A DNA stretch of 45,797 bases from positions 1-45,797 of the IMG/VR virus record IMGVR_UViG_3300012202_000003, one strand, 5' to 3'. Source of the DNA: a virus. Below the pieces are notes generated by a model, which saw nothing but the letters and a program-made list of their open reading frames with translations, had not been told where the DNA came from and ran no database searches. Of this stretch, positions 5,280 through 45,168 are shown piece after piece. Each line of letters opens with the position of its first letter. Within the stretch, counting starts at the first letter, position 1. Position numbers and translations under genes: made by a program.

Positions 5280-5304
5280 GTTCGGGTTAATTATTGCCCT
5301 GAAC
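5280..5304 (-). promoter_or_regulatory. 25-nt dyad motif copy 1 (minus-strand reading GTTCAGGGCAATAATTAACCCGAAC)
   Basis: Fills the gap between the upstream stop (TAG, 5307..5305) and GGAG-ATG of the portal gene. Matches the consensus GTKMRGGKYAATAATTRMCCYKMAC. Confidence 0.6.
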
Positions 5305-5631
5305 CTAGCTTTTTGTTGGCGGCACCGTCTCGTCAATATGATCTGCAAGTTGCGATGCAGTTTTCTTATTCGCATACGCAGCGTAAGCAGCAAGAATAGC
5401 AGAAAGCCCTGTTGCACCGAATGTTCCATAAGGGCCTAGCACACTTCCTACCTGACCAATCGCGGGGTTTGGTGAGATCACCACCGGACCATTCGTGCCG
5501 CCACCAGATTGCACAAAGGCAGGGGATTTTGCAAACCATGTTCCGGCTTTCGTTCCTGCACACCCTATAACCAACATCCATATTGCAACTATCACCACCG
5601 TTATCGTTGTCTTCATTTTGTTCCTTTTCAT
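5305..5631 (-). CDS. Predicted lipoprotein (o-spanin-like candidate)
   Basis: Signal peptide followed by lipobox LVIGC|AG. The mature part is Gly/Pro-rich. Shares an ATGA overlap with the upstream TM coiled-coil gene. An alternative ATG at 5616 gives MKTTITVV. Confidence 0.5.
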   Translation of the reverse strand: MKRNKMKTTITVVIVAIWMLVIGCAGTKAGTWFAKSPAFVQSGGGTNGPVVISPNPAIGQVGSVLGPYGTFGATGLSAILAAYAAYANKKTASQLADHIDETVPPTKS

Positions 5632-6158
5632 TTTATCTCGTTTGACCGCCGCCTTCTTAACTCATCTAGATCGCTCTTTACTTGGTAATCCTGCCATTCT
5701 TGTAAGCGTTTAATACCTTCTGCATTTTGTTCTACAGCACGAACTGCTTCAACATGTCGCTCTAACGAGCGGCTGTCCAAGTTTGCAATACCCTGACGGG
5801 CTGTCTCAATAGAAAGTTGAAATTCTTTCTGTAGTTTTGTGTCTAATGACTCAAGCCCGCGCTCCGAGGCCCTTTCCACCCTTTGAAGAGAAGAAGTGAA
5901 GTAGATCCCAACAGGAGTTGCTACCATCCCAACAATACCAAGAATAATCGTCGCGAGTTGGAAGTTTGGCTTCGTCGAATCGCTAACTCGATCCCGCACT
6001 TCAGCGAAACCTCGGTTGACCGAATCACGAATATTATCCAACGCACGACCAAACTGATCAAGCCGCTCTCCAAGAGATTGTATTTGCTCTGCATTCGACT
6101 TCGATTGAGCAAATACCTCTGCGAGTTGGACTACTGAATTTGTATCTTTTATCGCCAT
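5628..6158 (-). CDS. Single-pass membrane coiled-coil protein (i-spanin-like candidate, 176 aa)
   Basis: One hydrophobic segment (FQLATIILGIVGMVATPVGIYF) is flanked by heptad-like charged helices. It is translationally coupled to the lipoprotein gene. Confidence 0.5.
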   Translation of the reverse strand: MAIKDTNSVVQLAEVFAQSKSNAEQIQSLGERLDQFGRALDNIRDSVNRGFAEVRDRVSDSTKPNFQLATIILGIVGMVATPVGIYFTSSLQRVERASERGLESLDTKLQKEFQLSIETARQGIANLDSRSLERHVEAVRAVEQNAEGIKRLQEWQDYQVKSDLDELRRRRSNEIK

Positions 6159-6799
6159 GCTACAGTAAGATCAGCAGGAGTTGTCCCTGCAGTGACGATC
6201 GTAAGGCCGGTGTTGAAGCGCACATCATAAAGCAACGTCGCGACATTTAAAGTCGTATCGAGCGTTCCAATCTTTGGCACTGTAGCAGATGTGTTGTCGT
6301 AGATTGTTGCGGTAGTGGCAGCACCTCTTGTATTCACAGAGAGATAATGAAGCACGCCTGTGCCGCTCTTTACCACTGTAGTGGCGTTTGTTGTAATGTT
6401 GGTATAGTTATTATCAAAAACTCCACCTGTGCCACTTGCTAATGTTGCTCCTGAAAGGGTGAAGGCGTTTGAATCAGTCGTTGTTAAGACTAGGTTATTC
6501 CCACCAAGCCCCGGCTCTGTCGCGACAACAATTACAATATTTCCCGGCACCTGAACAGCATAGACAGATCGAACAAAGGTAGTGGTAAAGCCCAAATCTT
6601 GCCGAGATAGGTCGGAGTTAATCACCGCCACAAGGGATTGGCAAATCTGTTGGGGGGTGTCGCCAAAGAAATGTGTCTTGTAGGTCAACGTCGTCCCACC
6701 GATGACAATATTCGGTGTTGCTGTAGGCTTGCTGTTAACGACGATATAACCAAAAGCTTGTTGACCAAAAGGCCGATAATATTCAATTCCAGGATTCAT
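6149..6799 (-). CDS. Hypothetical Thr/Gly/Asn-rich beta protein (216 aa), probably structural
   Basis: ATGA overlap with the TerL stop. Composition is typical of fibre or decoration proteins. Confidence 0.5.
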   Translation of the reverse strand: MNPGIEYYRPFGQQAFGYIVVNSKPTATPNIVIGGTTLTYKTHFFGDTPQQICQSLVAVINSDLSRQDLGFTTTFVRSVYAVQVPGNIVIVVATEPGLGGNNLVLTTTDSNAFTLSGATLASGTGGVFDNNYTNITTNATTVVKSGTGVLHYLSVNTRGAATTATIYDNTSATVPKIGTLDTTLNVATLLYDVRFNTGLTIVTAGTTPADLTVAWR

Positions 6800-8854: not shown

Positions 8855-8890
8855 AAACCGTGCTTCCTTTCATGCGCCTTCTGGCGCGGG

Positions 8891-9529: not shown

Positions 9530-10170
9530 AACCATGAGAAGCGAGCTTCTTGAGCGCTTGTCAAAAGCACAGTCGTGCCATTTGAGGTAATGTCCACCAC
9601 CGAACCTCCTTTTGTAAGGGAGAGTTGGAAATCGTTCGTGGTTGGGTTGACCACGTAGTAATAAAGGGTGGAGGTTATTCCTCCTGGCACCGGAGAGCCT
9701 GTTAGATAAACTGCCGAGCCTGCGATAAGAGTATGAGCAGCAAGGGTAATCTTATCGGAGGGCGCGTCAGCGGTCACAGCCTGCGCGCTATAATTCGACG
9801 CCCCACCGTCGATAACGAACGAGAGGGTGCCGATAGGGTTAGCAGTGAAAGGGAGGAGAATAGGAGCATTTTTGTGGATAGCAATACCTGTATCACCCGC
9901 GACACCCTTTAGAGTCATTGAGTAGCGATTTAGGGGATCGGGTTGGATGATCACACCAGCAGCGTTGGTGGGGGCGGTGATAGTGTTAGCCCCGTTGAGG
10001 ATATGGAGGATGTCGGTGCGACATATCGACGACGAGTTCGTAATTTGATAGTCGCAGGTCGTAGTGCCAAGACCAGAAAGGAACTGTGTAGCAGAGGCCG
10101 TTAGAGCCACCGAGGAGGAACCACTCGAAGCAGTCGCAGCGCCCGAGGAGATATTCGCGTTGACACTCAT
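9526..10170 (-). CDS. Paralog B (214 aa), beta-rich putative virion appendage protein
   Basis: Tandem duplicate of the downstream gene, e.g. YYVVNPTTNDFQ(L/I)SLTK(G/S)GSVVD(I/L)TSNG. Confidence 0.6.
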   Translation of the reverse strand: MSVNANISSGAATASSGSSSVALTASATQFLSGLGTTTCDYQITNSSSICRTDILHILNGANTITAPTNAAGVIIQPDPLNRYSMTLKGVAGDTGIAIHKNAPILLPFTANPIGTLSFVIDGGASNYSAQAVTADAPSDKITLAAHTLIAGSAVYLTGSPVPGGITSTLYYYVVNPTTNDFQLSLTKGGSVVDITSNGTTVLLTSAQEARFSWL

Positions 10171-10748
10171 ACCGCTCCCACCCCAAGGCGCTTCAATTCC
10201 CTCTCGTTCTCTTCGATCTCTCGATTCACCGCGTCAATGTCCTCCGCCATGTGGGTGACCTCGGCTTTGACCTCCGACCTCTGCACGGCCTTCCCAAGAT
10301 ACCGGTCGAGAAGGCTATCCGCAGCGCGGAGTTGCACAGCAGGTTCCGTTGCCGAGTCACGAACGCTAATGATCTTCAGCACGGAGTCCTCTGCTGCCGA
10401 CGCGAGAAGACCTTGAACCGCGTCTTGTCCCGCTTCGCGAATTTCTTCGACGAGCCGTTGCCGTGCCCAAGGCTGGCGGAGGATGTTCGAGACCCAAGCC
10501 TCTGTTAAGTCAAGCCGGCGAGCAATGTCGCGATTCGACAAAGCCTGCGCTTTGAGGAAGATGATAATGCGGTGGCGGGGACTTTCATGAAGAATGCTCC
10601 AGTTTGGGTCTTTGGAATTAAACAACGCATCTGGGTTCTCTTTGTATTCCTGCTCAACTGTCGAGCCGGCGAGCTTAGAATTCTCATAGAAGCTTTGGTT
10701 GCCGGGCGCAACGCCCGCAGCTTCCGCATATCGGGCGAGTTCGTTCAT
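10167..10748 (-). CDS. HTH protein, small-terminase-like or regulatory (193 aa from ATG 10748)
   Basis: Sigma-region-4/LuxR-like helix-turn-helix (LSNRDIARRLDLTEAWVSNIL). A downstream AADSLLDRYLGKA segment resembles small terminases. ATGA overlaps on both sides. Confidence 0.45.
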   Translation of the reverse strand: MNELARYAEAAGVAPGNQSFYENSKLAGSTVEQEYKENPDALFNSKDPNWSILHESPRHRIIIFLKAQALSNRDIARRLDLTEAWVSNILRQPWARQRLVEEIREAGQDAVQGLLASAAEDSVLKIISVRDSATEPAVQLRAADSLLDRYLGKAVQRSEVKAEVTHMAEDIDAVNREIEENERELKRLGVGAV

Positions 10749-11143
10749 GGCACAATCTCCATCTTGTAAAAGCCTGGGTTGACCGCCGGAAGATCGCCAA
10801 AGGCGAAGAATGGACCTTCGACCATTGGGGACCACATTAGGCGAAGAACTGGGGACTTTGGTACCGTGAAAGAAATCTCGTTGCTGAAATCACTCACCAC
10901 CCCTGAAGAATCCTGAGCCACGACGGCAGCATAGAGCGTCGTCGATGTTTGGAGATTTGTCAAGGTAACCATAATGTTCGTTCGGGCATTGTTTGTGAAC
11001 GACAACGAATAGCTTCGGCTATTCGTCCCCACAAAGACCACATACCCCACCACTGAAGGTTCGGGGCTTTGATTCCACCCAAGAACCGGCCCTGCGGAGC
11101 AAAGCGAAGCCGTTCCAAGAAGGAGCGCTAGAAGGGTTCTCAT
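10745..11143 (-). CDS. Secreted fibronectin type III-like domain protein (132 aa)
   Basis: N-terminal signal peptide MRTLLALLLGTASLCSA. FN3-like pattern: W..SPEPSVVGYVV..G, TLTNLQTSTTLYAAVVAQDSSGVVSDFSNEISF. Confidence 0.6.
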   Translation of the reverse strand: MRTLLALLLGTASLCSAGPVLGWNQSPEPSVVGYVVFVGTNSRSYSLSFTNNARTNIMVTLTNLQTSTTLYAAVVAQDSSGVVSDFSNEISFTVPKSPVLRLMWSPMVEGPFFAFGDLPAVNPGFYKMEIVP

Positions 11144-11183
11144 GAATCGTGAAGCTCACGCCGCCTACGGCGACGCTGTTCTT

Positions 11184-11438: not shown

Positions 11439-11486
11439 GACTTGCCCTGCCTTTGGCAGTGCTGATCTTGAGGGTCGCGGAGCGGG

Positions 11487-12238: not shown

Positions 12239-12652
12239 TCAAAGGTTAAGGTAGCGGTCAAGAGCAAGCGTTCTGGCGCTCTGTTCGGGAAGGCGCTTCC
12301 CACCTTTCGGCGAGGCCAACCATTGGCGGAATGCGGAGGCGTTCCCGCCAATGCCATGCTCCTGCGCGGATGCCATAAAGTCCAACCGCGAGGCTTCGGG
12401 CATTCCATGCTCGGCCGCGATTCCGGCAAGCAGGCTGAGGTGCTCGACCGTCCCCCAAGCCTTCGGCTTTCCAGCGTCCTGAGCTGCAAGAATAGCATCA
12501 ACCATGCTGAGCATTTGGGGATCTCCGATTTTTGTGATTTCTTTCATAACCAATTTGCCTTTTCTTTCCCCGGGAGCGGAATTGCTCCCGATAACCCTAA
12601 GCATAGCATGATCTCCGGGGAGAGCAAGCTTTTTCTTTATCTTTCTTTTCAC
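12239..12652 (-). CDS. Hypothetical protein ending in LDRYLNL (137 aa; alternative ATG at 12547 gives 102 aa)
   Basis: The most protein-like of three mutually overlapping ORFs. It is downstream of motif copy 2 and carries the C-terminal motif shared with three plus-strand proteins. Confidence 0.5.
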   Translation of the reverse strand: MKRKIKKKLALPGDHAMLRVIGSNSAPGERKGKLVMKEITKIGDPQMLSMVDAILAAQDAGKPKAWGTVEHLSLLAGIAAEHGMPEASRLDFMASAQEHGIGGNASAFRQWLASPKGGKRLPEQSARTLALDRYLNL

Positions 12653-12767: not shown

Positions 12768-12792
12768 GTGAAGGTTAATTATTGCCCCTCAC
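12768..12792 (-). promoter_or_regulatory. 25-nt dyad motif copy 2 (minus-strand reading GTGAGGGGCAATAATTAACCTTCAC)
   Basis: Lies in the gene-poor region. The central AATAATT orientation points leftward toward 12746/12652. Confidence 0.55.
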
Positions 12793-13178
12793 AGAAGCTT
12801 GACGAAAGTGTGTCGGTCCGACGCCGACGCCGACACGACCTAAGTGCTTGCGGGAGAAGGAAAAGTGTTGGTCGTCCCGTTGGTCGTCTGATCACGAAAG
12901 GCATTTTGCCTATCCCAGAAAATGCCGCAAAAGTCCTTTTCCAAACGGCCAAAGCCTTTTTCTTACATGTGTCATTTTTTTTTTAGAAAAATGTATGTAA
13001 GAAGAAGGAAAAGCGAAAACCGTTTGGCGAAAGTGCCCTTGTGAAAGAGCTAGGTAATTTCTGCCTAGCTGGCAAAGAGCCAGAATGCCAAGCAAGGCCG
13101 ATGGGACGACCGATCAACCGACCCTTTTCATTGATTTGCAAGCTCTTACAAGCAAAAATGGTCGGCTATTTGATCGGC

Positions 13179-13373
13179 CTACCCCTTCCACTTTTTCTTT
13201 CGCCCGTTAAACCTTCGTCCTCGTGCTTTGTAGAAGGAAGAACGTGCATATTCAGATTGGTATATGAAGTAACGAGAACATCGACGTGAACAGCAGAGAG
13301 GTGGAGGAAAGGTGTGCTCAAAGAGTTCGCCACAGTAGCAGCAATGATAAAGGTTAAGAAGGGACATTTTCAT
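13179..13373 (-). CDS. Small zinc-ribbon protein (64 aa, MKMSLLNLYHCCYCGELF...CCSRRC)
   Basis: Paired Cys motifs CxxC...CCxxxC. An internal ATG of the track ORF 13179..13493 was chosen to remove the basic off-frame-looking N-terminus. Confidence 0.4.
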   Translation of the reverse strand: MKMSLLNLYHCCYCGELFEHTFPPPLCCSRRCSRYFIYQSEYARSSFYKARGRRFNGRKKKWKG

Positions 13374-13533
13374 TCGGGGGTTGAGGTTTTGCCACCACTT
13401 CGTGCGTGCGCCAAAACTCCGCGCGCTTATGCGCCGGGCAGCAAAAGCGTTGCCAGACCTTTTTCGGCGTAAAGGATTTCGCGCAGAGCACATAAGCGCA
13501 GGTTATCATCGGGAGGACTTTGGGTTTTTTCAT
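13354..13533 (-). CDS. Small zinc-ribbon protein (59 aa, MKKPKVLPMITCAYVLCAKSF...FCCPAHKRAEF)
   Basis: Cys pairs with a C..C...F...FCC..H pattern. ATG at 13533 within the track ORF 13354..13644. Confidence 0.4.
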   Translation of the reverse strand: MKKPKVLPMITCAYVLCAKSFTPKKVWQRFCCPAHKRAEFWRTHEVVAKPQPPNENVPS

Positions 13534-13890
13534 ATATGTGAGTAGAGCAACTGAATTCTCCGAGCCGAAAAGAGCCAGCTTTGCGGCTAGGGCGGCTATT
13601 GGGCCGCCCGCAAGCAGCCTAGCGTAGCATGAGATCAGCCGCAAGCTAAATCGCTCCTCCCCCTCCGCTCCGGCGCTCCCCAGGGCTTCGCCTTGCTAGC
13701 ATCTTTCATGCCAAGGCTCCGCCTTGGGCGGGATCTATTTTCATGCCATCTCTCCCCCGAGAAAGCAATTAAAGATAAATTCTTTTCTCGACATGCCCTT
13801 GCGTCCCCTGCTAGGCTCTTTCTCAAGGCGAGAGCCTTCGGCTGGCATAGAGCCTGCTTAGAGGCTTCGCCAAACAAAAGGCAAAATCAT

Positions 13891-14100
13891 ATGGCAAGAT
13901 GTGAAGATTATCCCTGCTGCGGCCACGAGGATGGTGGCTGCCCAAACCAAGATGGATCGTTCAATTGTGCAAGTTGTGGAAGAAAGTTGTCGAAGAACTC
14001 TCCTAGTTCAATTTGTACAAAGTGCCATCGTCGGGATAGAATAGCGAGGGCACGCGGCGAAGAGGTTGGAGGGGATTTTGATTACTCGATGAATTATTAA
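13891..14100 (+). CDS. Cys-rich small protein (69 aa, MARCEDYPCCGHEDGGCP...CASCG...CTKCH)
   Basis: Internal ATG of the track ORF 13693..14100. The upstream part is low-complexity, while the Cys-rich part looks like a metal-binding module. Confidence 0.5.
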   Translation: MARCEDYPCCGHEDGGCPNQDGSFNCASCGRKLSKNSPSSICTKCHRRDRIARARGEEVGGDFDYSMNY

Positions 14101-14109
14101 GGCCCAAAA

Positions 14110-14134
14110 GTGAAGGCCAATAATTAACCCGCAC
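14110..14134 (+). promoter_or_regulatory. 25-nt dyad motif copy 3 (GTGAAGGCCAATAATTAACCCGCAC)
   Basis: Ends 7 nt upstream of the ATG at 14142. A half-site-like AATTATTAAGGCCC lies at 14090..14103. Confidence 0.6.
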
Positions 14135-14141
14135 TAGCGCA

Positions 14142-14534
14142 ATGCAAAGCATCTTCAATCTTGCAGAAGCACGTGAAAGCCTCTCAAAGCGCTTCCCTAA
14201 TGCCTATCGACGTTCCTCCTACAATAAGCATCTCATCCTTAACCCATTTGACAGTTTAAGTGAGCTTGTCCTTTTATATGAAATCACGCTCCCGAAGACG
14301 AAGTCTTTCTGGCGTCTCACCGAGGCCCGCCTCGGCCATTGCCCAACGCTCCCTTCATGCGCTGGGCTTCTCGTCGCGACTGACGGCATGATGGCAATGT
14401 TGCTTCGCAGCGATGCGGAGCTTCTCGAAATTCATTGTTCGAGTTTTGTCGAAGATCAACCCGAAGCCGCGCCGGCGAAGGCAAGAACCTCACGGCCAGA
14501 CCCCGCATTAGATCGTTATCTTCAACTTGTATGA
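14142..14534 (+). CDS. Early hypothetical protein ending in LDRYLQLV (130 aa)
   Basis: First gene after motif copy 3. Carries the shared C-terminal motif. Confidence 0.6.
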   Translation: MQSIFNLAEARESLSKRFPNAYRRSSYNKHLILNPFDSLSELVLLYEITLPKTKSFWRLTEARLGHCPTLPSCAGLLVATDGMMAMLLRSDAELLEIHCSSFVEDQPEAAPAKARTSRPDPALDRYLQLV

Positions 14535-17101: not shown

Positions 17102-17793
17102 AAGCCTTTATCGGAGCATCTGAAAGTCCTCTTCCAGTCGAGGTGGAGCTTCTTGCAAAGGACACCATGCCAGGATTTTATCTCGTCAAGTATGGTCTGA
17201 AAGTTCTTCAACTCCACCACTCAAAACTTATCCCAACCGAAGTCGAACTTCAATCTATGAAAGACCTTGCCCAGAACAAACTCCCTTATCGCTTTCGAGA
17301 AGTGGCGTTCCGTCGCTATGAACCTATCCTAAAGCTTGTGCTTGAGCGCTTTCCCGCCCCCTTTTCGCTCAAGCCCGAAGGTTCGATTGAGACTTTCACT
17401 TGTCGCTTTCGGGATGCGATGAAGTCCCTTTTGAAGTATCAATGGCCGACCAACCTCCCGATGGCGAAGTTCGTCCAATGTGTCGATGCTATCGTTGTCA
17501 GCATTCAAGGCGACCTTGTTGTCATTGGTAACAGCGAAACAATCAAGCCCACCACCATCCTCGGCCAGCCTTGGACGCCCGCCTCGACCGAGCCTACCGC
17601 CCTGCCACTCGGTGTCACAACCCCTCTCTGGAACGTCATCGAGGCCATCTGTCTCTTACACGATCATCGTCTCTTGAAAACTTCTTCCTTCCTCCACAAA
17701 TGCGAGTTCTCTCTAACCGCCCTGAAGCAGTTGGAGAATCAATACGACGTCTTCATTGAGCAAATTGCCGATAGAGAGTTTAAAATTCTATGA
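17098..17793 (+). CDS. Hypothetical 231-aa protein
   Basis: Long ORF, ATGA-coupled at both ends. No motif recognised. Confidence 0.6.
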   Translation: MKAFIGASESPLPVEVELLAKDTMPGFYLVKYGLKVLQLHHSKLIPTEVELQSMKDLAQNKLPYRFREVAFRRYEPILKLVLERFPAPFSLKPEGSIETFTCRFRDAMKSLLKYQWPTNLPMAKFVQCVDAIVVSIQGDLVVIGNSETIKPTTILGQPWTPASTEPTALPLGVTTPLWNVIEAICLLHDHRLLKTSSFLHKCEFSLTALKQLENQYDVFIEQIADREFKIL

Positions 17794-18188
17794 CCACCAC
17801 CTTTGAAAACCCCAACAAAACAATCCGCCCTTCTTCTCGACTGAACGTGGATGTTCCCACCACATATCGGCTCTTCCTCGATAGCTTTCGACCTGCTTCG
17901 CGCGAAACCCTATCTATCATTATAAACCTTGCTCTTCGCAAACTCATCTATGAATGCAAATCCCGAAACCTTATCGACTACACCAACCGAGATGCCTTCG
18001 AATCCTTCGTCCTCTCCTTCTATGACATTTCAGGAGGAGATGGCAGTGTCGGAAGCTCCCCTCGAAACCCTCCTATCACTCCAGGGCCTAAAGCCAATGC
18101 ACCTAATGTCGGAGGAGGAACTCCTCTCAGTGGTGCAAAAGCTCCGCGCAAACCGGCAAAACTGGCAGGAGTTCCAGAAAAGCGTTAG
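17790..18188 (+). CDS. Hypothetical protein (132 aa); only the first ~85 aa look protein-like
   Basis: After ...SFYDISGG the frame becomes a Pro/Gly/Ala low-complexity tail, while the +1 frame becomes protein-like. Confidence 0.45.
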   Translation: MTTTFENPNKTIRPSSRLNVDVPTTYRLFLDSFRPASRETLSIIINLALRKLIYECKSRNLIDYTNRDAFESFVLSFYDISGGDGSVGSSPRNPPITPGPKANAPNVGGGTPLSGAKAPRKPAKLAGVPEKR

Positions 18189-18237
18189 CACCGGAGAGCC
18201 AGTCCCGAAGACCTTGGACCGATACCTCGACTTATAA
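18040..18237 (+). CDS. Hypothetical 65-aa protein ending in LDRYLDL, in the +1 frame overlapping 17790..18188
   Basis: ATG at 18040 is directly preceded by AGGAGGAG. The helical, charged sequence carries the shared C-terminal motif. Confidence 0.45.
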   Translation: MAVSEAPLETLLSLQGLKPMHLMSEEELLSVVQKLRANRQNWQEFQKSVSTGEPVPKTLDRYLDL

Positions 18238-21600: not shown

Positions 21601-21637
21601 CCCGCACCTAGGGCTATTTGCCGGCTGTAGGTGCGGG
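21601..21637 (+). terminator. 10-bp hairpin (CCCGCACCTA-N17-TAGGTGCGGG) followed by TTAATAATT; possible terminator overlapping motif copy 4
   Basis: Read directly. The 3' arm is also the left arm of the 25-nt motif. Confidence 0.4.
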
Positions 21638-21655
21638 TTAATAATTAACCTGAAC
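21631..21655 (+). promoter_or_regulatory. 25-nt dyad motif copy 4 (GTGCGGGTTAATAATTAACCTGAAC)
   Basis: Ends 10 nt upstream of the ATG at 21666. Confidence 0.6.
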
Positions 21656-21665
21656 ATAGAAGAAT

Positions 21666-22091
21666 ATGGATGACCCAAGAAAAGACCCGGGCTCGTCGGC
21701 GAGTTCGACAGGTGAGGAAAAAACTTACACAACCGGCGGACTACATATAAACCGATGGGTTCTAACCGGAAATGATCAGCTTGACGTTAACATCATCGCC
21801 GAGCGATGGAATATCGAAACCCCCGCCGGGATCGAAGCTCTCCGCGTCGCAATCGAAAATATCCAACTTCTCGATCGAAAGCAGAAAGACTACGGCCCGG
21901 CAAACATTGCAAAGTTCGGCGCGAATGGTTGTCTTGTCCGGATGAGCGACAAATACGAGCGCCTCGTCAACCTCTTCAAGAAGAAACGAAACATTCCCCA
22001 GAACGAGTCCATTCAAGATAGTTTCAAAGACCTCTCAAATTATGCGATTATTGCGTTGCTTTGTTTGAGGGGAAAGTGGCCGAAGGAATAA
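21666..22091 (+). CDS. DUF1599-like (MazG-related all-alpha NTP pyrophosphatase fold) protein (141 aa)
   Basis: LDRKQKDYGPANIAKFGANGCLVRMSDKYERLVNL...NESIQDSFKDLSNYAIIAL matches the K.DYG...G..G...R..DK..R pattern of DUF1599. Confidence 0.5.
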   Translation: MDDPRKDPGSSASSTGEEKTYTTGGLHINRWVLTGNDQLDVNIIAERWNIETPAGIEALRVAIENIQLLDRKQKDYGPANIAKFGANGCLVRMSDKYERLVNLFKKKRNIPQNESIQDSFKDLSNYAIIALLCLRGKWPKE

Positions 22092-22903: not shown

Positions 22904-23238
22904 ACCCTATCAACTCTATCAACCAACTCTGCATCGAATCCCACGCGAACGCGGTCATCCACGGCTTTTGGGAAGGTGCCCTTCGATGCAACATCGGCGA
23001 GAAGGTCGCCCTTATCCACTCTGAAATCTCCGAGTTTTGGGAGGGAGAACGTCGTGGCGAAAGCCCATTCCCCGATGAGCACTGCCCCGAGCACCCTCAC
23101 GGTGCTATCGAACTAGCCGACGTCCTTATCCGTATCTTCGACCTAGCGGGCCATGAGAGGTATGATCTCGGTGCTGCGGTGCAAGCAAAGATGGCCTATA
23201 ACAAGACAAGACCTCATCTTCATGGAAAGAAATGTTAA
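22900..23238 (+). CDS. mazG: MazG-like nucleotide pyrophosphohydrolase (112 aa)
   Basis: EKVALIHSEISEFWEG and ELADVLIRIFDLA helices, typical of phage MazG. ATGA overlap upstream. Confidence 0.65.
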   Translation: MNPINSINQLCIESHANAVIHGFWEGALRCNIGEKVALIHSEISEFWEGERRGESPFPDEHCPEHPHGAIELADVLIRIFDLAGHERYDLGAAVQAKMAYNKTRPHLHGKKC

Positions 23239-23431
23239 CCCTTCCTGGAAGGTGAAGTGTCAGATTGGAAGTTACTTCCTCTCTTTTTTTCCTACCAAAT
23301 TATCAACCCGTGAAGTTGGGCACTGTCTTGGTTATTCAAAAGACATGATTCGAAAAATCGAACAACGAGCAGCTTTTAAAATTGTTGTAAGAATGCAGAA
23401 AGCTATCTATGACGAACACCTTCTCTCTTGA
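23222..23431 (+). CDS. Small HTH protein, sigma-70 region-4-like (69 aa)
   Basis: LSTREVGHCLGYSKDMIRKIEQRAAFKI resembles a region-4 HTH. ATG at 23222 lies within the track ORF 23153..23431. Confidence 0.45.
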   Translation: MERNVNPSWKVKCQIGSYFLSFFPTKLSTREVGHCLGYSKDMIRKIEQRAAFKIVVRMQKAIYDEHLLS

Positions 23432-23831
23432 CGAAGACTTGTCCAAAGTTGCTACCCCGCTTTACATCCCAGAGCGCGCAGCCTGCGAACCCCACCTTTT
23501 CTGCTCGATGGAACGGTTTGTCAAATACGTATCCAAGTTTTATTGCTTTGATTGTATCACTTATTCTCAGTCTATCTTTTCAGGTCTCGTCCCCAACCGA
23601 CTTATTTACGGCCTAAGAACGGGTCTTCCAAAGAACAAAAACTGGAAATACGTTCCCTCCATCCATACAAAACTCTTCCTTCTTTATAACAAGACCAAAC
23701 TTCACCGTGCCTACGTCGGCTCCTTCAATCTATGTGCACCAACTACCGAGAATCTTATGATCGAAGCAGGATCACAGAAGGTGCGCAACTATCTTAAAGA
23801 GTATTTTGAGTATATATGGAAACGAAAATGA
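23409..23831 (+). CDS. Phospholipase-D-family (HKD) nuclease-like protein (140 aa)
   Basis: HTKLFLLYN...AYVGSFNL matches HxK...GSxN. Size is similar to Nuc-type endonucleases. The Asp position of the HKD motif is Tyr here. Confidence 0.5.
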   Translation: MTNTFSLDEDLSKVATPLYIPERAACEPHLFCSMERFVKYVSKFYCFDCITYSQSIFSGLVPNRLIYGLRTGLPKNKNWKYVPSIHTKLFLLYNKTKLHRAYVGSFNLCAPTTENLMIEAGSQKVRNYLKEYFEYIWKRK

Positions 23832-25198
23832 CTCCTACTATACTAATCACCTCCATAAAGGTTGAAGACCGTCAGCGGAAAGACCTCGGCGACGTCGCGG
23901 ACCTTGCAGCCTCGATGGCTGAACATGGCCTTATCCAACCCATCGTGCTGAACTTCGACAACCGTCTTATTGCGGGTGAGCGTCGTCTCCGAGCAGCCGA
24001 GTCCCTTGGTTGGACCTCTATCTCATTCGTCTATAAAGAAACCCTCTCCGAGGAACAACTCACCATGTTGGAACTCGAAGAGAACATCCGACGAAAGGAG
24101 ATGACCTGGCAGGAGCAGTGCCGCGCTATTGACAAAGTCCATCAGATTAAGCTACGTCAATCTGCTATCAACCCTCAAGCTGAGTTATGGACCCATAAAA
24201 TGACGGGCCTTCTTCTTGGGGTCTCTCGTTCGACAGTGACCTTTAACATCCAAGTCATCGCAGAACTCAACAACCCCGACTCCGGCATCCATCAATGCAC
24301 CGGATATACCGACGCAATTAAATGGCTTATACGGCGTCGAGAAGACGAAGCCCTCGCAGTTCTTGCATCGCGAACATTATCAAAGCCGCTTCCGATCCCA
24401 ACAATCATCTCTGAAGAAGATGGAACGTCATCAGAGTTCGATTCGGATGAACTTCCTATCGTAGGTGAACAAGAAACCCTAGCTATCTCGAAGATGTTCA
24501 TCCTTGGAGACTGTCTTAAAGTGCTCGACACCTACCCTCCAGAAAGCTTCGACCACTGTATCACCGACCCACCTTACGGAATTGACATGGCAATGCTTTC
24601 TCAACAGAACAGCGGCATTGGGGACGTCGACCGAGTCGAGGCTGAGCATGACGTTCGCGAAAACCGTCTTTTACTCTCAGACGTGATACCAGAGATTTAT
24701 CGCGTTCTTAAAAAGGATGCTTTCTTCGTTTTATGGTGTGATATAACAAACTGGCAGTTTATCTATGACCGATGCCAACAAATCGGCTTCAAGGTTCAAA
24801 GATGGCCCCTAACCTGGGTCAAAACCCACCAATGTATCAACCAAGCCGCACAGTATAACTTCACCAAGAGCACCGAGATTGCGATGGTATGTCGAAAAGG
24901 CAACGCTATGCTTGCGAAGTCTGCTTCCTCATGCGTGATCCACGCAGAACGCTCCACAGCCGAATCCAACCCTTTCGCGAAGCCGTTTGCAGTATGGGAA
25001 TTCATCCTCGACCATATCGTCCTCCGTGGGCAGACTATCCTCGATCCCTTCGCGGGTGAGGGGTCATCCCTCCAGGTCTTCGCCTCATCTTGGAACCCTT
25101 TTGTTGGGATTGAGATTAACGAGAAACATTATAATGCCGGTCTTGTAGCTCTAAAAGCAAAATTCGACATCATGTATCGAAACCCCTTCTACACATGA
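23816..25198 (+). CDS. ParB-like N-terminal domain fused to an N6A/N4C DNA methyltransferase (460 aa)
   Basis: ParB box IQPIVL...LIAGERRLRAA. Methyltransferase motif IV ITDPPYG precedes motif I ILDPFAGEGSS (beta-class order). Confidence 0.85.
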   Translation: METKMTPTILITSIKVEDRQRKDLGDVADLAASMAEHGLIQPIVLNFDNRLIAGERRLRAAESLGWTSISFVYKETLSEEQLTMLELEENIRRKEMTWQEQCRAIDKVHQIKLRQSAINPQAELWTHKMTGLLLGVSRSTVTFNIQVIAELNNPDSGIHQCTGYTDAIKWLIRRREDEALAVLASRTLSKPLPIPTIISEEDGTSSEFDSDELPIVGEQETLAISKMFILGDCLKVLDTYPPESFDHCITDPPYGIDMAMLSQQNSGIGDVDRVEAEHDVRENRLLLSDVIPEIYRVLKKDAFFVLWCDITNWQFIYDRCQQIGFKVQRWPLTWVKTHQCINQAAQYNFTKSTEIAMVCRKGNAMLAKSASSCVIHAERSTAESNPFAKPFAVWEFILDHIVLRGQTILDPFAGEGSSLQVFASSWNPFVGIEINEKHYNAGLVALKAKFDIMYRNPFYT

Positions 25199-25965: not shown

Positions 25966-26176
25966 CTTCTACCTTCATATCCGCCATCTCGACAACCTCT
26001 ATGAAGTCGCTTTCGCAGATAACAACATCCGCTTCATTTTGGTTTACTACGGCACCCACACCCAACGAGGGGAAGAAGTTCTTTTCGATTCGCTACCTGA
26101 AAAGGTGCAAGAGACAATCGAAGAACGGTTCCAAGAAATGCACCTAACCGATGAAGGAGACCTTTATTCGATATGA
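25958..26176 (+). CDS. Hypothetical 72-aa protein (GTG start)
   Basis: GTG at 25958 follows GGTAGAGGA. ATGA-coupled to the polymerase start. Confidence 0.5.
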   Translation: MSNFYLHIRHLDNLYEVAFADNNIRFILVYYGTHTQRGEEVLFDSLPEKVQETIEERFQEMHLTDEGDLYSI

Positions 26177-28755
26177 ACGTCCCAAATCAGCAACCTTCTT
26201 CTTTCGCGTCTTATCGTATCGCCATTGTTGGCGAAGCTCCCGGCCGCGACGAAGAAGCAATTAGCAAACCTTTTATGGGTATGTCAGGCCGCTTTCTTAA
26301 AGCTCTTATGTCCCGAGCAGGAATCAACCCCGAGTCATGTCTAATTGCAAACGTCTGCCAGACCCGCCCTATCGCCAACGATATCACCACCCTTCGATGG
26401 GATGGTGACGAGATCACCGACGGCCTCGCCCTTCTAAAAGAAGATGTGGTACGGTTCAAACCCAACATCGTTTTTCTCCTCGGCAACATCGCCCTCAAAG
26501 CTGCAAAGGACATGGCACCTTGTCCTCTCAAAAAGCCCAAACACTCCGTCTCCAACTGGCGTGGTTATGCCTTTATCTGTGATCAACTCGATAGTCCTTT
26601 CTTTGGCTTGAAGTGTATCGCTTCCTACCATCCCGCGGCGATCCTTCGTAATTATGAATGGGCACCCCTTCTTCAGTTCGACCTGAAGAAAGCTTTCCGA
26701 CATGGAACCTTTCCCGACCTCAGGGTGCCAAAGCGAGAACTCGACGTTCATCTCACCCCTCAAGAAATTATCGAGGCTCTAAACTACCTCAACGCCTTTC
26801 CAAAGACCGTCGCTATCGATATCGAAGGTGGGGTGGAGAACGTCTCGTGCATTAGCTTCGCCACCGATCCCGGCTACGCTTTCATCGTTCCTCTCTCCAC
26901 CTCAACAGGTTCCTTTTATGAAAATGAAAAAGACGAAATCCAAGTGTGGCAAGCCTTGTCGAAAGTCCTCGCAAACCCCCAAGTGGGAAAAATCCTTCAG
27001 AATTCCCTCTATGACCGTTTCGTCCTACAATACTCTCTTGGGATCGTGGTTCGAGGTGTCATTGAGGATACCATGCTCAAGCACTGGGAAGCGTATTGCG
27101 AGTTGGAAAAAGGTTTGGGGTTCCAAACCTCTCTTTATACTGACGAACCCTACTATAAGTTCGAGAGAAAAACGGACGATCTTGAAGTATTTCATCGATA
27201 TTGTTGCAAGGACTCAGCGATCACTTATGAGATCGCAGAAAAGATCACGCCCTCTCTCAAAGCCCCGTCGCTAGCGCATTACCGAATAAACCTCGAACTT
27301 CTCAACCCTATTCTTTACATGGAGTTGCGGGGGATTGCATACAACACAAAAGGCGCAAAACTTCGCCAGAAGGAGGTGCAGGAGAAGGTGTGGGAACTTC
27401 AGCATGGTCTTAATAATATCACCGGTCACCAACTCCCCATCGAAGAACTTCTTCTTCCTATTCAAGCACAGAAACTCATGTGCTACAAACGTGACCCTAA
27501 CCAACCAAAGGCCCCTTATGCCACAGCCTATCCAGAGACGTTATCACTTATCCGGCTCAACCCTCGAACGTCTTCTCAACAAGGACATCTCGAAGACCTT
27601 CTCGAAACCTCTCTCAACACCAATTCGTCGGCTTTTCGCACGTATCTATATGACAAACTCAAACTCCCCCTCCAAACCAATGAACTTGGTCAACCCACCG
27701 CGGACTACGGTGCGCTCCTCAACCTCAAGAAAAAACTCCCGCCAGAAAGCCTCGACCACCGCGTCGCAGATCTGGCTATTCAAATCCGTCATCACTCTGT
27801 TAGAGCACGCATGTTGGAAATCCATGCAGATCGAGACGGGCGCATTAGGTGTGGTTATAACGTTGTTGGAACTGAAACTGGTCGGATCACCTGTTATACC
27901 AGCCCAACCGGTTCAGGTTACAATCTTCAAACTATTCCTACCTACGACCGGGATCTTTTTGTCGCAGATCAGGATTGTTGGTTCTTCCAATGTGATCTCT
28001 CTGGAGCTGACGGATGGACAGTGGCAGCGTATTGTAAAATGCTTGGGGACTCAACTATGCTGGATGACCTTATATTCGGTCTTAAACCAGCAAAAATCCT
28101 TTGCCTTATGTTACGACAAGGAGCATCCATGGCGACGAAGAGTCGAGAAGAGCTTTCGGTCCTTGCAAAGGAAGTCAAAAAAGAAGACTGGGATTACTTT
28201 GCCTGCAAAATTGCCCAACATGGAACTTGTTACCTTATGGGGGGTATTAAACTCGCCCGCACCATATTCGAACAAAGCGAGGGAAAGGTTAATCTCACAT
28301 CTCGACAGACTGAAGAACTTCGGTCTTTGTTCTTTCTACGATACCCCGGCGTGCGATTATGGCACGATTACACAGCACGTCAATTATCTCGCCAACCAGT
28401 TATCACAAGCGCCAGTGGGCACCGACGTGTTTTCTTTGGACGCTCGAAAGAGATACTAAGTGATGCCTTAGCACACGAACCTCAACATAACACCACGTAT
28501 GTCACAAATTTGGCAGCACTTCGTCTATGGCATGACCCTGAAAATAGAGAAAGCGACAGGCTTAAAATTGAGCCATTACACCAAGTGCATGATGCCCTTG
28601 CCGGTCAATTTAAAAAGTCCGATACAGCTTGGGCAGTTGGTAAGATACGGGAATATTTTAACAACTCCCTCAAAATCGCGAATCAACAAGTGGTTATTCC
28701 CTTTGAAGGTTCTTATGGGGGAAGTTGGGGGAGTTTGAAGGAGGGAGTGATATGA
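26173..28755 (+). CDS. Family A DNA polymerase with an N-terminal UDG-superfamily (family-4-like) domain and a 3'-5' exonuclease domain (860 aa)
   Basis: UDG motifs: GEAPGRDEE, NVCQTRP and SYHPAAILRN. Exonuclease motifs: VAIDIEGG, NSLYDRFVL and YCCKDSAITYE. Polymerase motifs: FQCDLSGADG (A), KIAQHGTCYLMG (B) and QVHDAL (C). Confidence 0.9.
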   Translation: MNVPNQQPSSFASYRIAIVGEAPGRDEEAISKPFMGMSGRFLKALMSRAGINPESCLIANVCQTRPIANDITTLRWDGDEITDGLALLKEDVVRFKPNIVFLLGNIALKAAKDMAPCPLKKPKHSVSNWRGYAFICDQLDSPFFGLKCIASYHPAAILRNYEWAPLLQFDLKKAFRHGTFPDLRVPKRELDVHLTPQEIIEALNYLNAFPKTVAIDIEGGVENVSCISFATDPGYAFIVPLSTSTGSFYENEKDEIQVWQALSKVLANPQVGKILQNSLYDRFVLQYSLGIVVRGVIEDTMLKHWEAYCELEKGLGFQTSLYTDEPYYKFERKTDDLEVFHRYCCKDSAITYEIAEKITPSLKAPSLAHYRINLELLNPILYMELRGIAYNTKGAKLRQKEVQEKVWELQHGLNNITGHQLPIEELLLPIQAQKLMCYKRDPNQPKAPYATAYPETLSLIRLNPRTSSQQGHLEDLLETSLNTNSSAFRTYLYDKLKLPLQTNELGQPTADYGALLNLKKKLPPESLDHRVADLAIQIRHHSVRARMLEIHADRDGRIRCGYNVVGTETGRITCYTSPTGSGYNLQTIPTYDRDLFVADQDCWFFQCDLSGADGWTVAAYCKMLGDSTMLDDLIFGLKPAKILCLMLRQGASMATKSREELSVLAKEVKKEDWDYFACKIAQHGTCYLMGGIKLARTIFEQSEGKVNLTSRQTEELRSLFFLRYPGVRLWHDYTARQLSRQPVITSASGHRRVFFGRSKEILSDALAHEPQHNTTYVTNLAALRLWHDPENRESDRLKIEPLHQVHDALAGQFKKSDTAWAVGKIREYFNNSLKIANQQVVIPFEGSYGGSWGSLKEGVI

Positions 28756-28892
28756 CCGCTGTAGAAATACAAACTAAACACCGAGTGTTTTGTGAACAGT
28801 TGCTCCATTGTCATGGTGGAAACGAGGCAACACAAATTATAGAAGAGTTGATAACTTTTAGTCAAGCAACTACTGATGAAGATAAAGTATAA
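28752..28892 (+). CDS. Possible 46-aa protein
   Basis: ATG at 28752 forms an ATGA overlap with the polymerase stop. Hand-translated as MTAVEIQTKHRVFCEQLLHCHGGNEATQIIEELITFSQATTDEDKV. Confidence 0.35.
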   Translation: MTAVEIQTKHRVFCEQLLHCHGGNEATQIIEELITFSQATTDEDKV

Positions 28893-28964
28893 AGTTCTAC
28901 GTGCCACTATTATATGTATGACAGGACAAGTTTGTGCAGAACGCCTTATAAATGGTGTTAAATC

Positions 28965-29231
28965 ATGAGCCCCCTCAACAACGGCCGTCACCTATCCGCC
29001 TCCGAGCGTCGAATCGCAGACCTCGAACGCACGAAGCAAGAATTCGTCGTCCTTTTGAACTATCTCATCGTGCAAAATGGGGGCAAATACGAAATGCTCG
29101 CGAAGGACGTCCGCCAGATACCTCTCTGGATTATCCGAACGGAGATTAGCGGCGAGGGTGAAGAGCGAAAGATGATCTTCACGCGGTTAGAGCCGCCACC
29201 TCAAGAACCGAAAATTATCCTCCCCCAATAG
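28965..29231 (+). CDS. Hypothetical 88-aa protein
   Basis: Its TAG stop abuts motif copy 5. Confidence 0.5.
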   Translation: MSPLNNGRHLSASERRIADLERTKQEFVVLLNYLIVQNGGKYEMLAKDVRQIPLWIIRTEISGEGEERKMIFTRLEPPPQEPKIILPQ

Positions 29232-29256
29232 GTTCAGGTTAATAATTGCCCTTCAC
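29232..29256 (+). promoter_or_regulatory. 25-nt dyad motif copy 5 (GTTCAGGTTAATAATTGCCCTTCAC)
   Basis: Starts immediately after the TAG at 29229..29231. Lies 42 nt upstream of the HNH gene ATG. Confidence 0.55.
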
Positions 29257-29298: not shown

Positions 29299-29781
29299 AT
29301 GAAAACTATTCCAATTGCAAAATATCCACATATTCTTATACTCGTAGATGACGATGATTATGATAAACTAAAAGACTATACATGGCGGTTAGTTGAAGGG
29401 TATCCAGCAAGAGGATGCAACGCAAACACCTCACTCTCTTCCCCGTTTATCTTAATGACTCATTGTATTCTGCCCTGTAAAGAGGGTTTCGTTATAGATC
29501 ATGTAGACCAAAATAGGTTAAATAACCAAAAGATAAACCTTCGTTATCTTACCTATTCACAGAATAATTTCCACTCAGATAAACACGTAAGAAATACAAC
29601 TGGCTTCAAAGGAGTCTTTTCTGCAACTTATCATGGAAGAGTTTCTTACAGAGCTAGAGTTTGTATCAATCAACAAAGGATTAACTTAGGTAGCTTTAAA
29701 ACCGCAGAAGAAGCGGCGAAAGCTTATGATGCTTATGTAAAATTACATGTAGGGAAAGTTGCTCACTTAAATTCCCCTTGA
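29299..29781 (+). CDS. HNH homing endonuclease with a C-terminal AP2 DNA-binding domain (160 aa)
   Basis: IDHVDQNRLNNQKINLRYLTYSQN (HNH_3-like) and GFKGV...YRARV...LGSFKTAEEAAKAYD (AP2). Visibly AT-rich relative to flanking genes. Confidence 0.8.
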   Translation: MKTIPIAKYPHILILVDDDDYDKLKDYTWRLVEGYPARGCNANTSLSSPFILMTHCILPCKEGFVIDHVDQNRLNNQKINLRYLTYSQNNFHSDKHVRNTTGFKGVFSATYHGRVSYRARVCINQQRINLGSFKTAEEAAKAYDAYVKLHVGKVAHLNSP

Positions 29782-37479: not shown

Positions 37480-37504
37480 GTGAAGGTTAATTATTAACCC
37501 GAAC
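37480..37504 (-). promoter_or_regulatory. 25-nt dyad motif copy 6 (minus-strand reading GTTCGGGTTAATAATTAACCTTCAC)
   Basis: Fills the gap between the TAG at 37507..37505 and TGCT-ATG of the giant gene. Same 29-nt architecture as copy 1. Confidence 0.6.
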
Positions 37505-37771
37505 CTAGAGGCCGCTTTGCATTAGAAGTTGAAGAAGGGGAGCAAGCGACGGAGTTTGAGAAGCCACCGTGGCCTGTTGTTTTCCTGACAGCTTTTGACC
37601 CTTGGTCAAACCTTGTGCAAGCACCTTCGAGGTATCATCTGAGAAACCAAGTTGACCTAGTCCCGTTGAGGCCGACCCCGAGTTACCTCCAAGCAACCCC
37701 CCTAGAACAGTCCCAGCCGCCCCACTTGTCGAGGTTGTCGTCCCTCCCAAAAGTCCTTCAAGAAAGTCCAT
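37505..37771 (-). CDS. Gly/Ser/Thr-rich small virion protein (88 aa)
   Basis: ORF with a TAATG overlap to the upstream gene. Call rests on composition only. Confidence 0.5.
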   Translation of the reverse strand: MDFLEGLLGGTTTSTSGAAGTVLGGLLGGNSGSASTGLGQLGFSDDTSKVLAQGLTKGQKLSGKQQATVASQTPSLAPLLQLLMQSGL

Positions 37772-44802: not shown

Positions 44803-45168
44803 TTAAAGAGGTTCACCAATCAAAATACATTGGACTGGGGTCTGAAACCCAAGAAAAAACGCTGAAGACCCACTGATAGTAAAAGAGAGGTAAAGGTATT
44901 GCCCGTCTTCCTTGAGAATAAACACATACCGTGGAGTTGCTGCTCCTGGTGGCCAGACCGGAGAAACACTAGCCCATACATTGAGGGGCACAACCACCCG
45001 TCGAAAGCCCAAAGCCACGACGTTGATGTTGGGATCCCAAGTATCTCCACCACCTGGGGAGGTTGGGATGTAAGCCTTTCGCATGACCAAGCTTTGTCCT
45101 TTTGGACCAGCCAGGTTAAATTCCTCAAGTATTTGAACATAGGCTCTTGTTAGAGATTGAACAGCCAT
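44803..45168 (-). CDS. Hypothetical virion protein (121 aa)
   Basis: ORF is tightly packed between the adaptor-like gene and the fiber gene. Confidence 0.5.
   Translation of the reverse strand: MAVQSLTRAYVQILEEFNLAGPKGQSLVMRKAYIPTSPGGGDTWDPNINVVALGFRRVVVPLNVWASVSPVWPPGAATPRYVFILKEDGQYLYLSFTISGSSAFFLGFQTPVQCILIGEPL

Follow-up and report, generated by a model that had tools for sequence, protein, structure and literature searches.

Lineage-specific 25-bp dyads at gene-module heads in a family of uncultivated phages, and a ParB-HTH-methyltransferase as their candidate reader

Introduction

Why would a phage genome carry several nearly identical palindromes at the heads of its gene modules, and what reads them? 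The question is raised by the viral record IMGVR_UViG_3300012202_000003, analyzed here over its whole length of 45,797 nucleotides (the window), in which an initial annotation had described six intergenic copies of a 25-bp dyad. Our results show that these sites are real, family-wide, lineage-specific and syntenic, and we consider it very probable that they are duplex-DNA targets of a phage-encoded dimer that co-evolves with them. The candidate that we put forward for this dimer, with somewhat less than even confidence, is the protein coded by 23816-25198(+), in which a ParB-type CTPase domain and a helix-turn-helix (HTH) are fused to a DNA methyltransferase (ParB-HTH-MTase). Fusions of ParB-CTPase domains to N6/N4 methyltransferases are among the commonest ParB-fold architectures of phages, their function and DNA targets being unknown (PMC12704722), and ParB-like proteins have been described as partners of phage DNA-modifying enzymes (PMC13229309).

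Results

Six copies of one dyad in the window

A motif scan of the window bore out all six copies, with the coordinates and strands that had been assigned to them, and each matches the invariant skeleton GTNNNGGNNAATAATTNNCCNNNAC exactly:

5280..5304, minus strand: motif copy 1, GTTCAGGGCAATAATTAACCCGAAC; preceded by the stop codon of 5305-5631 and followed after 4 nt by the ATG of the portal gene
12768..12792, minus strand: motif copy 2, GTGAGGGGCAATAATTAACCTTCAC; head of the leftward (late) arm, facing outward from a 1.3-kb divergent gap
14110..14134, plus strand: motif copy 3, GTGAAGGCCAATAATTAACCCGCAC; head of the rightward (early) arm, with the ATG of 14142-14534 7 nt downstream
21631..21655, plus strand: motif copy 4, GTGCGGGTTAATAATTAACCTGAAC; 10 nt upstream of the DUF1599 gene 21666-22091
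29232..29256, plus strand: motif copy 5, GTTCAGGTTAATAATTGCCCTTCAC; abuts the stop of 28965-29231 and is followed by a 30-codon open reading frame (ORF) and then by the HNH-AP2 gene 29299-29781
37480..37504, minus strand: motif copy 6, GTTCGGGTTAATAATTAACCTTCAC; between the stop of 37505-37771 and the gene of a 2169-aa virion protein, whose ATG is 4 nt downstream

When up to 3 mismatches to the skeleton were allowed, with shuffled sequence giving a chance level of about 0.95, the only extra matches were reverse readings of the same six sites, and no degenerate further copies appeared in the window. The consensus proposed for all six, GTKMRGGKYAATAATTRMCCYKMAC, describes only five of them (5 exact matches observed vs 0.00 expected), the copy at 14110 having C at position 8 (GTGAAGGCC...). 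The other positional claims of the initial annotation held. All six copies are intergenic, the AATAATT orientation follows the direction of the flanking gene in each, and the element is tied to gene-module heads. Four copies end 4-10 nt before an ATG (4 nt at 5280, 7 at 14110, 10 at 21631 and 4 at 37480). The ATG nearest to copy 2, 21 nt downstream, opens a 19-codon ORF, and the one 2 nt after copy 5 opens the 30-codon ORF only, the ATG of the HNH gene being 42 nt downstream. In three copies the TAG stop of the upstream gene directly abuts the motif. A site homologous to copy 6 also precedes the giant virion gene in one relative, L015. Upstream of copy 4, in the segment 21600-21637, a small hairpin, CCCGTTAAAACGGG, is followed by CCCGCAC, which is the reverse complement of the seven bases that open the motif (GTGCGGG) and stands 24 nt from them; it may add structure or be fortuitous.

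The window is a circularly permuted complete phage genome; the homolog of 495-833 precedes the homolog of 45168-45707 in relatives. Late genes run leftward (12652→1, then 45707→30966) and early and replication genes rightward (14142→31054), and the two arms diverge from the 1.3-kb gap, which is unconserved and has copies 2 and 3 on its flanks. The corresponding divergent gaps of relatives measure 95-900 nt and hold one or two motif copies each. In the window the gap (12793-14109) contains cysteine-rich ORFs on both strands (13179-13493-, 13354-13644- and 13693-14100+) that have no homologs in relatives, and these ORFs were rejected as conserved immediate-early regulators, there being conservation at neither the protein nor the DNA level.

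Family-wide occurrence and concerted change

A search of related metagenomic phages, which had been proposed as a check on the motif, found the same 25-bp dyad, with its position upstream of the portal gene kept in synteny. The exact motif has no match in IMG/VR; the cores are lineage-specific, and relatives were therefore sought through their proteins; a single-protein query with the polymerase returned nothing from IMG/VR and an alignment query worked. A megablast of the window found no near match among GenBank phages. The phage family is nevertheless large: TerL has >1000 homologs, and the fusion of an N-terminal family-4 uracil-DNA glycosylase (UDG) domain to the family-A DNA polymerase, coded in the window by 26173-28755(+) (PF03167 + PF01612 + PF00476), is kept in >700. 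Its members are often found on 45-50-kb contigs from soil, peat and freshwater assemblies.

An unsupervised search of 180 loci recovered the dyad in 67 contig groups, at 232 sites, with the pooled consensus GT-N4-x-TCA-N5-TGA-x'-N4-AC, and a search with relaxed ends added seven more lineages that carry the dyad with different outer ends. Conservation covers a core at positions 6-20, whose arms stand 1-5 nt apart, as well as the outer GT/AC dinucleotides. Every relative examined has its own version of the motif directly upstream of the portal ATG, in addition to other sites. The inner arm that reads GGTTAAT in the window is GGTCATT, TCCTATT, TTCCATT, GGTTCT, GTTCT, CTTCAG, TATCA, GGCTAAC, GTTTAG or TGTTCAC in other lineages, but within a genome the arms are nearly identical among the 5-8 copies. 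The portal-upstream site therefore keeps its position across lineages while its sequence changes, and such in-place, concerted change calls for one trans-acting reader per genome, with drifting specificity, and speaks against a mobile repeat. In these genomes the intergenic region often consists of the motif alone, and the gene before it frequently ends at a TAA or TGA inside the motif.

The core of the window, GGTTAAT-A-ATTAACC, resembles a Fur-like box (xxxTAAT-N-ATTAxxx). A host global regulator, for example one that recognizes a Fur-like 7-1-7 box, was rejected as an unlikely binder, the arms of close relatives being quite different.

Probable recognition as duplex DNA

The initial annotation had argued from non-compensatory variation between half-sites that the motif is recognized as DNA by a dimeric protein and not as an RNA stem. 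The variation is indeed uncompensated, TT alternating with GC or CC at positions 8-9 without ever being mirrored at 17-18, and pairing, mismatch and folding data all support the conclusion. At nearly all of 85 sites, positions 1-2 and 7-10 complement their partners, whereas for positions 3-5 (vs 21-23) this is true of only 41-47%, and of 33-44% of well-oriented sites, about the chance level. Mismatches on the sense strand were of the G·U type and the A·C type in a ratio of 21:23, and of 29:34 in a larger set; the lack of a G·U excess is evidence against an RNA stem, which would favor G·U. The RNA folds of the six copies are weak (-4 to -9.4 kcal/mol, z-scores -0.9 to -3.0) and their pairings differ, and the motif has no match in Rfam.

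We therefore regard as highly improbable an element that works at the RNA level, that is, an intercistronic mRNA hairpin acting on the downstream cistron by way of translation initiation, coupling, processing or stability. Such a role would suit the position of the motif exactly between stop and start codons, over the ribosome-binding region, as well as the bias of its central base on the sense strand; moreover, the inner arms remain complementary across lineages, and perfect 10-bp stems are possible in some of them (L036, L040). To the pairing and folding results that oppose it are added two properties of the sites themselves: copies within a genome keep their sequence, not merely their structure, and the gap copies of L052, L056 and L036 lie hundreds of nucleotides from any gene.

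A ParB-HTH-methyltransferase as candidate binder

The protein that we propose as the binder was not one of the two HTH proteins named as candidates in the initial annotation. Its features in the window are:

23816..25198, plus strand: candidate binder; ParB-type CTPase N-domain with GERRxRA, ParB-type HTH, disordered linker and beta-class N6A/N4C methyltransferase
24188..24268, plus strand: HTH of the ParB-type domain, residues 125-151, WTHKMTGLLLGVSRSTVTFNIQVIAEL; predicted recognition helix at residues 138-151

Pfam and PHROG matches identify ParB_N and N6_N4_Mtase domains, TIGR00180 is scored at 62 bits (cut-off 58.45), and the PDB sequence matches are Noc (1.7e-11), Spo0J and ParB. The GERRxRA-type patch reads 'LIAGERRLRAAESLG', with R56 and R57 invariant in 38 homologs, and the ParB-style HTH reads 'LLLGVSRSTVTFNIQVIAEL'. 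AF2 models reached pLDDT values of 85.8 and 92.2, the latter for residues 1-190, in which the helices 127-134 and 138-151 are predicted with pLDDT above 90. With Foldseek, the only significant PDB matches of the N-terminal part were structures of the N-terminal and DNA-binding domains of ParB-family proteins, several of them DNA complexes, including Noc-DNA 7ol9, Caulobacter ParB-parS 6t1f (TM 0.55) and KorB-KorA-DNA 8qa9, over 150-224 aligned columns, and the C-terminal half matched CcrM, M.BceJIV and similar enzymes. The gene is part of the core of the phage family, with >1200 homologs. In this otherwise well-conserved protein, the HTH scaffold residues W125, T130, L134, V141, I148 and L151 are invariant among the 38 homologs (entropy at most 1), and the interleaved, exposed positions 136, 138, 140, 142, 146 and 149 are hypervariable (entropy 2.6-3.2), among the most variable of the whole protein. 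Such a pattern would be expected of a diversifying recognition surface.

Neither of the HTH proteins suggested earlier fits. The protein coded by 10167-10835, with a LuxR/sigma4-type HTH, is conserved in 53 loci just upstream of TerL, but its recognition helix, 'WVSQxxRQPW', is essentially constant across lineages whose cores differ, and the pairs L022/L044 and L043/L029, for example, have the same helix and different motif cores; this protein resembles the small terminase in its location and architecture. The protein coded by 23153-23431(+) has no homolog in any relative, though the motif system is family-wide. Its C-terminus, LSTREVGHCLGYSKDMIRKIEQRAAFKI, resembles sigma-70 region 4.2, with weak NCBIfam matches to the C-termini of SigK and sigma-32.

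If the ParB-HTH-MTase reads the sites, its HTH should have diversified together with the arms, and the covariation between the two is suggestive, not decisive. In the N-domain L116 and L106 are 76% identical, against only 11% at the hypervariable helix positions, and they have different cores; L142 and L122, with 78% helix identity, have identical cores. Both pairs fit co-diversification. Position by position, mutual information couples R138 to motif positions 6-7 and F143 to 9-10 (p=0.0025 each); seven of 136 such tests, which have no phylogenetic control, reached p≤0.01 where 1.4 were expected.

Several observations weigh against this protein as the reader of the sites. The correlation between helix similarity and arm similarity is weak once N-domain identity is controlled (partial Mantel r=0.11, permutation p=0.074), and nearest-neighbor contrasts gave rho 0.31 (n=18 independent, p=0.21). 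In the mutual-information tests, with no phylogenetic control, no single pair survives Bonferroni correction. L015 and L020 have the GTTCT core in common with a helix identity of only 22%, and TGTTCA is shared by L108 and L143, and by L110 and L106, with different helix types. A ParA/CbiA-type partner had no match among the proteins scanned, and the canonical C-terminal dimerization domain is replaced by the methyltransferase. The gene lies within the early arm, and its product cannot occupy the sites when the DNA enters the cell. ParB docking alone leaves two regularities of the sites without explanation: the central A on the sense strand (28/36) and the clustering of start codons within 5 nt (82/138), for which genome compaction could account. 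Finally, known ParB-family sites measure 13-16 bp, and the motif measures 25 bp with conserved outer GT/AC dinucleotides, whose function the proposed mechanism leaves unexplained.

Other features of the genome

Gene content shifts beside the conserved motif sites. The segment between TerL and the portal gene spans 1.5 kb in the window (5305-6799) and holds three small genes; in the relatives L001, L005 and L018 it spans 7-8 kb, and in relatives it includes large tail-fiber-like genes (941 aa, and 1153 aa with a pectate-lyase domain).

The giant virion protein of 2169 aa, coded by 30966-37475(-) downstream of copy 6, has no Pfam or PDB sequence match. It contains HELVH (HExxH) near residue 921 and 'EVQSDW' near residue 583, its C-terminal third resembles a structural protein of roughly 3800 aa of F116-like Pseudomonas phages (Hollowayvirus), and relatives have versions of 1925 to 2577 aa. 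We regard it as probably polyvalent and ejected. A virion RNA polymerase of the N4 or crAss type was rejected for it on the features of its sequence: no PDB or Pfam match, no DxDxD, the HExxH and the F116-like structural C-terminus.

The same C-terminal peptide, (A/T)LDRYL(N/Q/D)L, ends three early ORFs, 12239-12652(-), 14142-14534(+) and 17929-18237(+). The first two are the first genes of the divergent arms and are unrelated apart from this peptide, and the third is an alternative frame over the low-complexity tail of 17790-18188, an arrangement suggestive of an indel or a frameshift. Relatives were not found to have the peptide, which may be a short docking motif for a host protein.

The late-arm spacers 8855-8890, 11144-11183 and 11439-11486 carry short GC-rich hairpins (GCGCC-AGAA-GGCGC, CGCCG-TAG-GCGGCG and CTGCC-AAAG-GCAG) that have no T-tracts and are unrelated to the motif; they may be attenuators or mRNA stabilizers. 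The genome's only near-perfect sigma70-type promoter, TTGACT-N18-TATAAT, lies at 28836-28865 on the minus strand, within the 209-nt gap 28756-28964, and opposes the early genes. Downstream of it, a 32-codon ORF (MTMEQLFTKHSVFSLYFYSGHITPSFKLPQLPP) extends in antisense orientation into the 3' part of the DNA polymerase gene. The promoter may drive a small gene or an antisense RNA.

Throughout the genome, gene starts almost entirely lack Shine-Dalgarno sequences, and upstream regions are A-rich. No tRNA genes or Rfam families were matched in the window, and no repressor, integrase or other lysogeny gene was seen among the proteins scanned. Related contigs have been binned with a Patescibacteria metagenome-assembled genome (MAG) and with a Nitrososphaerota MAG. 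A weak transglycosylase match, the sigma-like HTHs and the one perfect sigma70 promoter suggest a bacterial host.

Discussion

Alternative explanations for the sites

It had been suggested that the motif is a phage-specific promoter that produces near-leaderless transcripts. In this explanation, which we consider unlikely, it would direct the host RNA polymerase through some phage factor, or an unrecognized phage polymerase, and the mRNA of the gene that opens each module would have a very short leader or none. Where the two divergent arms and the internal modules begin, the motif is the only sequence conserved: beyond it nothing is kept within ±45 nt, with no enrichment of TTG or TAnnnT at any fixed offset (57 oriented sites). 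No sigma70 or Bacteroidota-type promoter was found at a fixed upstream offset, and no sigma70-like -35/-10 at any fixed offset from the motif; in L020, two outward-facing copies stand 95 nt apart with no recognizable promoter in between. The single canonical sigma70 promoter of the genome points in the wrong direction, and the phage does without Shine-Dalgarno sequences. A central A on the sense strand at 28 of 36 well-oriented sites gives the motif a polarity, and the closest published analog, ESAS, is now read as promoter plus operator (PMC11373665). Moreover, at 82 of the 138 sites with a one-sided ORF the start codon falls between -6 and +5 nt from the motif end (13 overlap the motif, 44 lie at 0-2 nt and 25 at 3-5 nt, followed by 18 at 6-12 nt). 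This closeness is explained just as well by genome compaction, because the motif often fills the whole intergenic region.

The same set of sites also weakens the promoter explanation. The start codon lies inside the motif at 13 sites, including that of the L057 portal gene, the distance from motif to ATG ranges from -6 to >40 nt, so that a fixed start site serving all copies is unlikely, and for 81 of the 232 sites no ORF begins within 40 nt, while gap copies can be 300-500 nt away from any gene. The cores of L015, L013, L043 and L050 are not AT-rich, and some are GC-rich at the center; for this reason, and for its wrong geometry to the ATG, the motif center was judged to be neither an archaeal TATA box nor a -10 box. 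In addition, the element is a true dyad, and the known promoters of phage polymerases and sigma factors are asymmetric. As the initial annotation had stated, no -35 lies at the right spacing (a consensus scan pairs AATAAT with poor -35 hexamers only) and no phage RNA polymerase is visible; Pfam and PHROG scans of ~55 proteins found neither an RNA polymerase nor a conserved sigma factor. An operator for a dimeric phage regulator other than the ParB-HTH-MTase has about the same modest probability as a promoter. This regulator would be a small, fast-evolving early protein that homology does not reveal and that represses, activates or blocks transcription globally, much as stoperators or KorA do, and the evidence that a co-evolving dimer reads the DNA applies to it equally. 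Most early genes are ORFans with no family matches, among which a regulator could hide, the first genes on both arms are lineage-restricted, and the weak covariation of the ParB-type HTH leaves room for one. However, family-wide sites predict a family-wide binder, and the broadly conserved DNA-binding candidates that were found are the TerS-like HTH protein, which does not track the motif, and the ParB-HTH-MTase only; the sigma4-like HTH protein 23153-23431 is unique to this genome, and that no repressor, integrase or other lysogeny gene was seen counts in the same direction. The least probable explanation is a selfish or recombinogenic repeat with no regulatory role, either a REP/MITE-like palindrome or a module-boundary recombination sequence of the T4 PeSL type. 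The copies are intergenic, palindromic and numerous, and gene content between TerL and portal varies by lineage on either side of conserved sites. But sites that stay syntenic while their sequence changes in concert within each genome call for a common reader acting in trans instead of transposition; no gene for a transposase or RAYT was found, and there are only 5-8 copies per genome. The earlier suggestion of a PeSL-like recombination boundary found no support, the structure of early promoter plus stem-loop seen in PeSL being absent.

Proposed mechanism and its meaning

We tentatively propose, at a little under even odds, that the motifs act in cis as stretches of duplex DNA on which a sequence-specific phage homodimer docks, most likely the ParB-HTH-MTase, and are of the same kind as parS, KorB operators and phage operators. 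The two HTHs of the dimer would read the two inner arms (GGTTAAT and ATTAACC in the window), with the outer GT/AC dinucleotides and the AT-rich center completing the site. With sites in a few intergenic spaces at module heads, including those of both arms that leave the gap, their occupancy could gate or modulate transcription of all modules at once, as KorB does on plasmid RK2. By analogy with KorB and canonical ParB, nucleotide binding would close a clamp that either stays at the site or slides off it (PMC11790492), and a sliding clamp could carry the fused methyltransferase along the phage's own DNA. Control of transcription and delivery of the methyltransferase are both plausible and do not exclude each other, and we infer that binding serves one or both.

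A more specific version, possible but on balance improbable, is that the motifs are the cognate loading sites of the ParB-CTPase-methyltransferase fusion, from which a nucleotide-gated clamp, closed after recognition of the phage-specific dyad, would slide off and so confine methylation, KorB-like long-range control, or both, to the phage genome. If this is true, rapid co-diversification of HTH and site would give each lineage a private 'self' address, and the widespread class of phage ParB-CTPase-methyltransferases would gain a defined mechanism. The family is a natural experiment in this respect, with a core ParB-HTH-MTase gene and 5-8 dyads per genome whose arms vary by lineage, and if protein and sites are partners the role of such fusions becomes directly testable. 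Even with another binder, the sites would be a clean case of a genome-wide, co-evolving operator set in uncultivated phages. In addition, the motif is a practical marker of transcription-unit boundaries where hosts use no Shine-Dalgarno sequences.

Comparison with known systems

Among phage elements that differ between related phages, T7-type promoters and the hairpin promoters of the N4 virion polymerase are likewise phage-specific conserved elements of 20-25 bp placed before gene blocks. In contrast to these systems, no phage RNA polymerase was found here, the dyad stem is not conserved, and the distance to the ATG is variable, with the start codon sometimes inside the motif. Cluster A stoperators, which Brown et al. 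1997 and Mavrich & Hatfull 2019 reportedly describe as asymmetric 13-14-bp sites, in 20-35 copies, for the immunity repressor of temperate phages, resemble our sites as many intergenic, phage-specific sites that co-evolve with a phage DNA-binding protein and show an orientation bias to transcription; they are also said to act genome-wide. Here, in contrast, the site is a dyad in 5-8 copies, and neither a repressor nor a lysogeny module was found.

The start-associated elements of Cluster K mycobacteriophages (ESAS and SAS), which the initial annotation had offered as a model, are the closest published look-alikes in behavior. ESAS are subcluster-specific, multi-copy imperfect inverted repeats a short way upstream of start codons, syntenic, with non-compensated departures that argue against an RNA hairpin (PMC3203893; see also PMC11373665 and PMC12699233). 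Our sites share the lineage-specific consensus, the synteny and the uncompensated departures, a resemblance of behavior and not of homology. ESAS, however, are 46-50 bp long, their arms of 15-17 bp being separated by 4-14 bp, and contain SigA -35/-10 hexamers; the present motif has 25 bp and no embedded -35/-10. After ESAS there is also usually a 13-bp SAS, which contains the ribosome-binding site and lies 3-9 nt from the start codon, and no conserved asymmetric sequence of that kind, and thus no SAS, was found between motif and ATG.

For ParB-parS and Noc-NBS, the likeness lies in the GERRxRA N-domain followed by an HTH domain and in multi-copy, dimer-symmetric sites: the candidate binder has the CTPase fold with GERRxRA and an HTH directly after the N-domain, and the replicon has several palindromic sites. 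The C-terminal dimerization domain, the ParA partner and a 13-16 bp site of abutting half-sites are lacking. With neither such a domain nor a ParA found, this is not a partition system, though action like that of KorB or Noc is possible. The 16-bp parS, canonically TGTTNCACGTGAAACA, and the 14-bp NBS are strongly conserved across bacteria. In the phage family, by contrast, the arms of close relatives have diverged fast, the site has in addition a 1-5-nt spacer and the outer GT/AC, and there is no segregation partner. Two lineages nevertheless come near to known sites: the L143 core, TGTTCAC-N3-GTGAACA, is close to the parS consensus, and that of L016, TTTCA-N5-TGAAA, is near the half-site of P1 BoxA and VirB, ATTTCA. 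Such parS-like cores are circumstantial support for a ParB-type binder.

KorB and its OB sites on the IncP plasmid RK2 offer the nearest functional parallel, with a ParB-family protein of a mobile element and dispersed palindromic sites near operon heads, although for the phage the binding is presumed. The predicted N-terminal model of the phage protein matches KorB-KorA-DNA 8qa9. KorB has a C-terminal dimerization domain, the partners KorA/TrbA and IncC (ParA) and a 13-bp core site, whereas the phage protein ends in a methyltransferase, no ParA or KorA was found, the site has 25 bp and the phage is apparently lytic. KorB is a CTP clamp of the ParB family that silences RK2 promoters from its palindromic OB sites (PMC11790492). 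Although it is a member of none of these families, the element described here is comparable to KorB operators and parS in function and to Cluster K ESAS in position.

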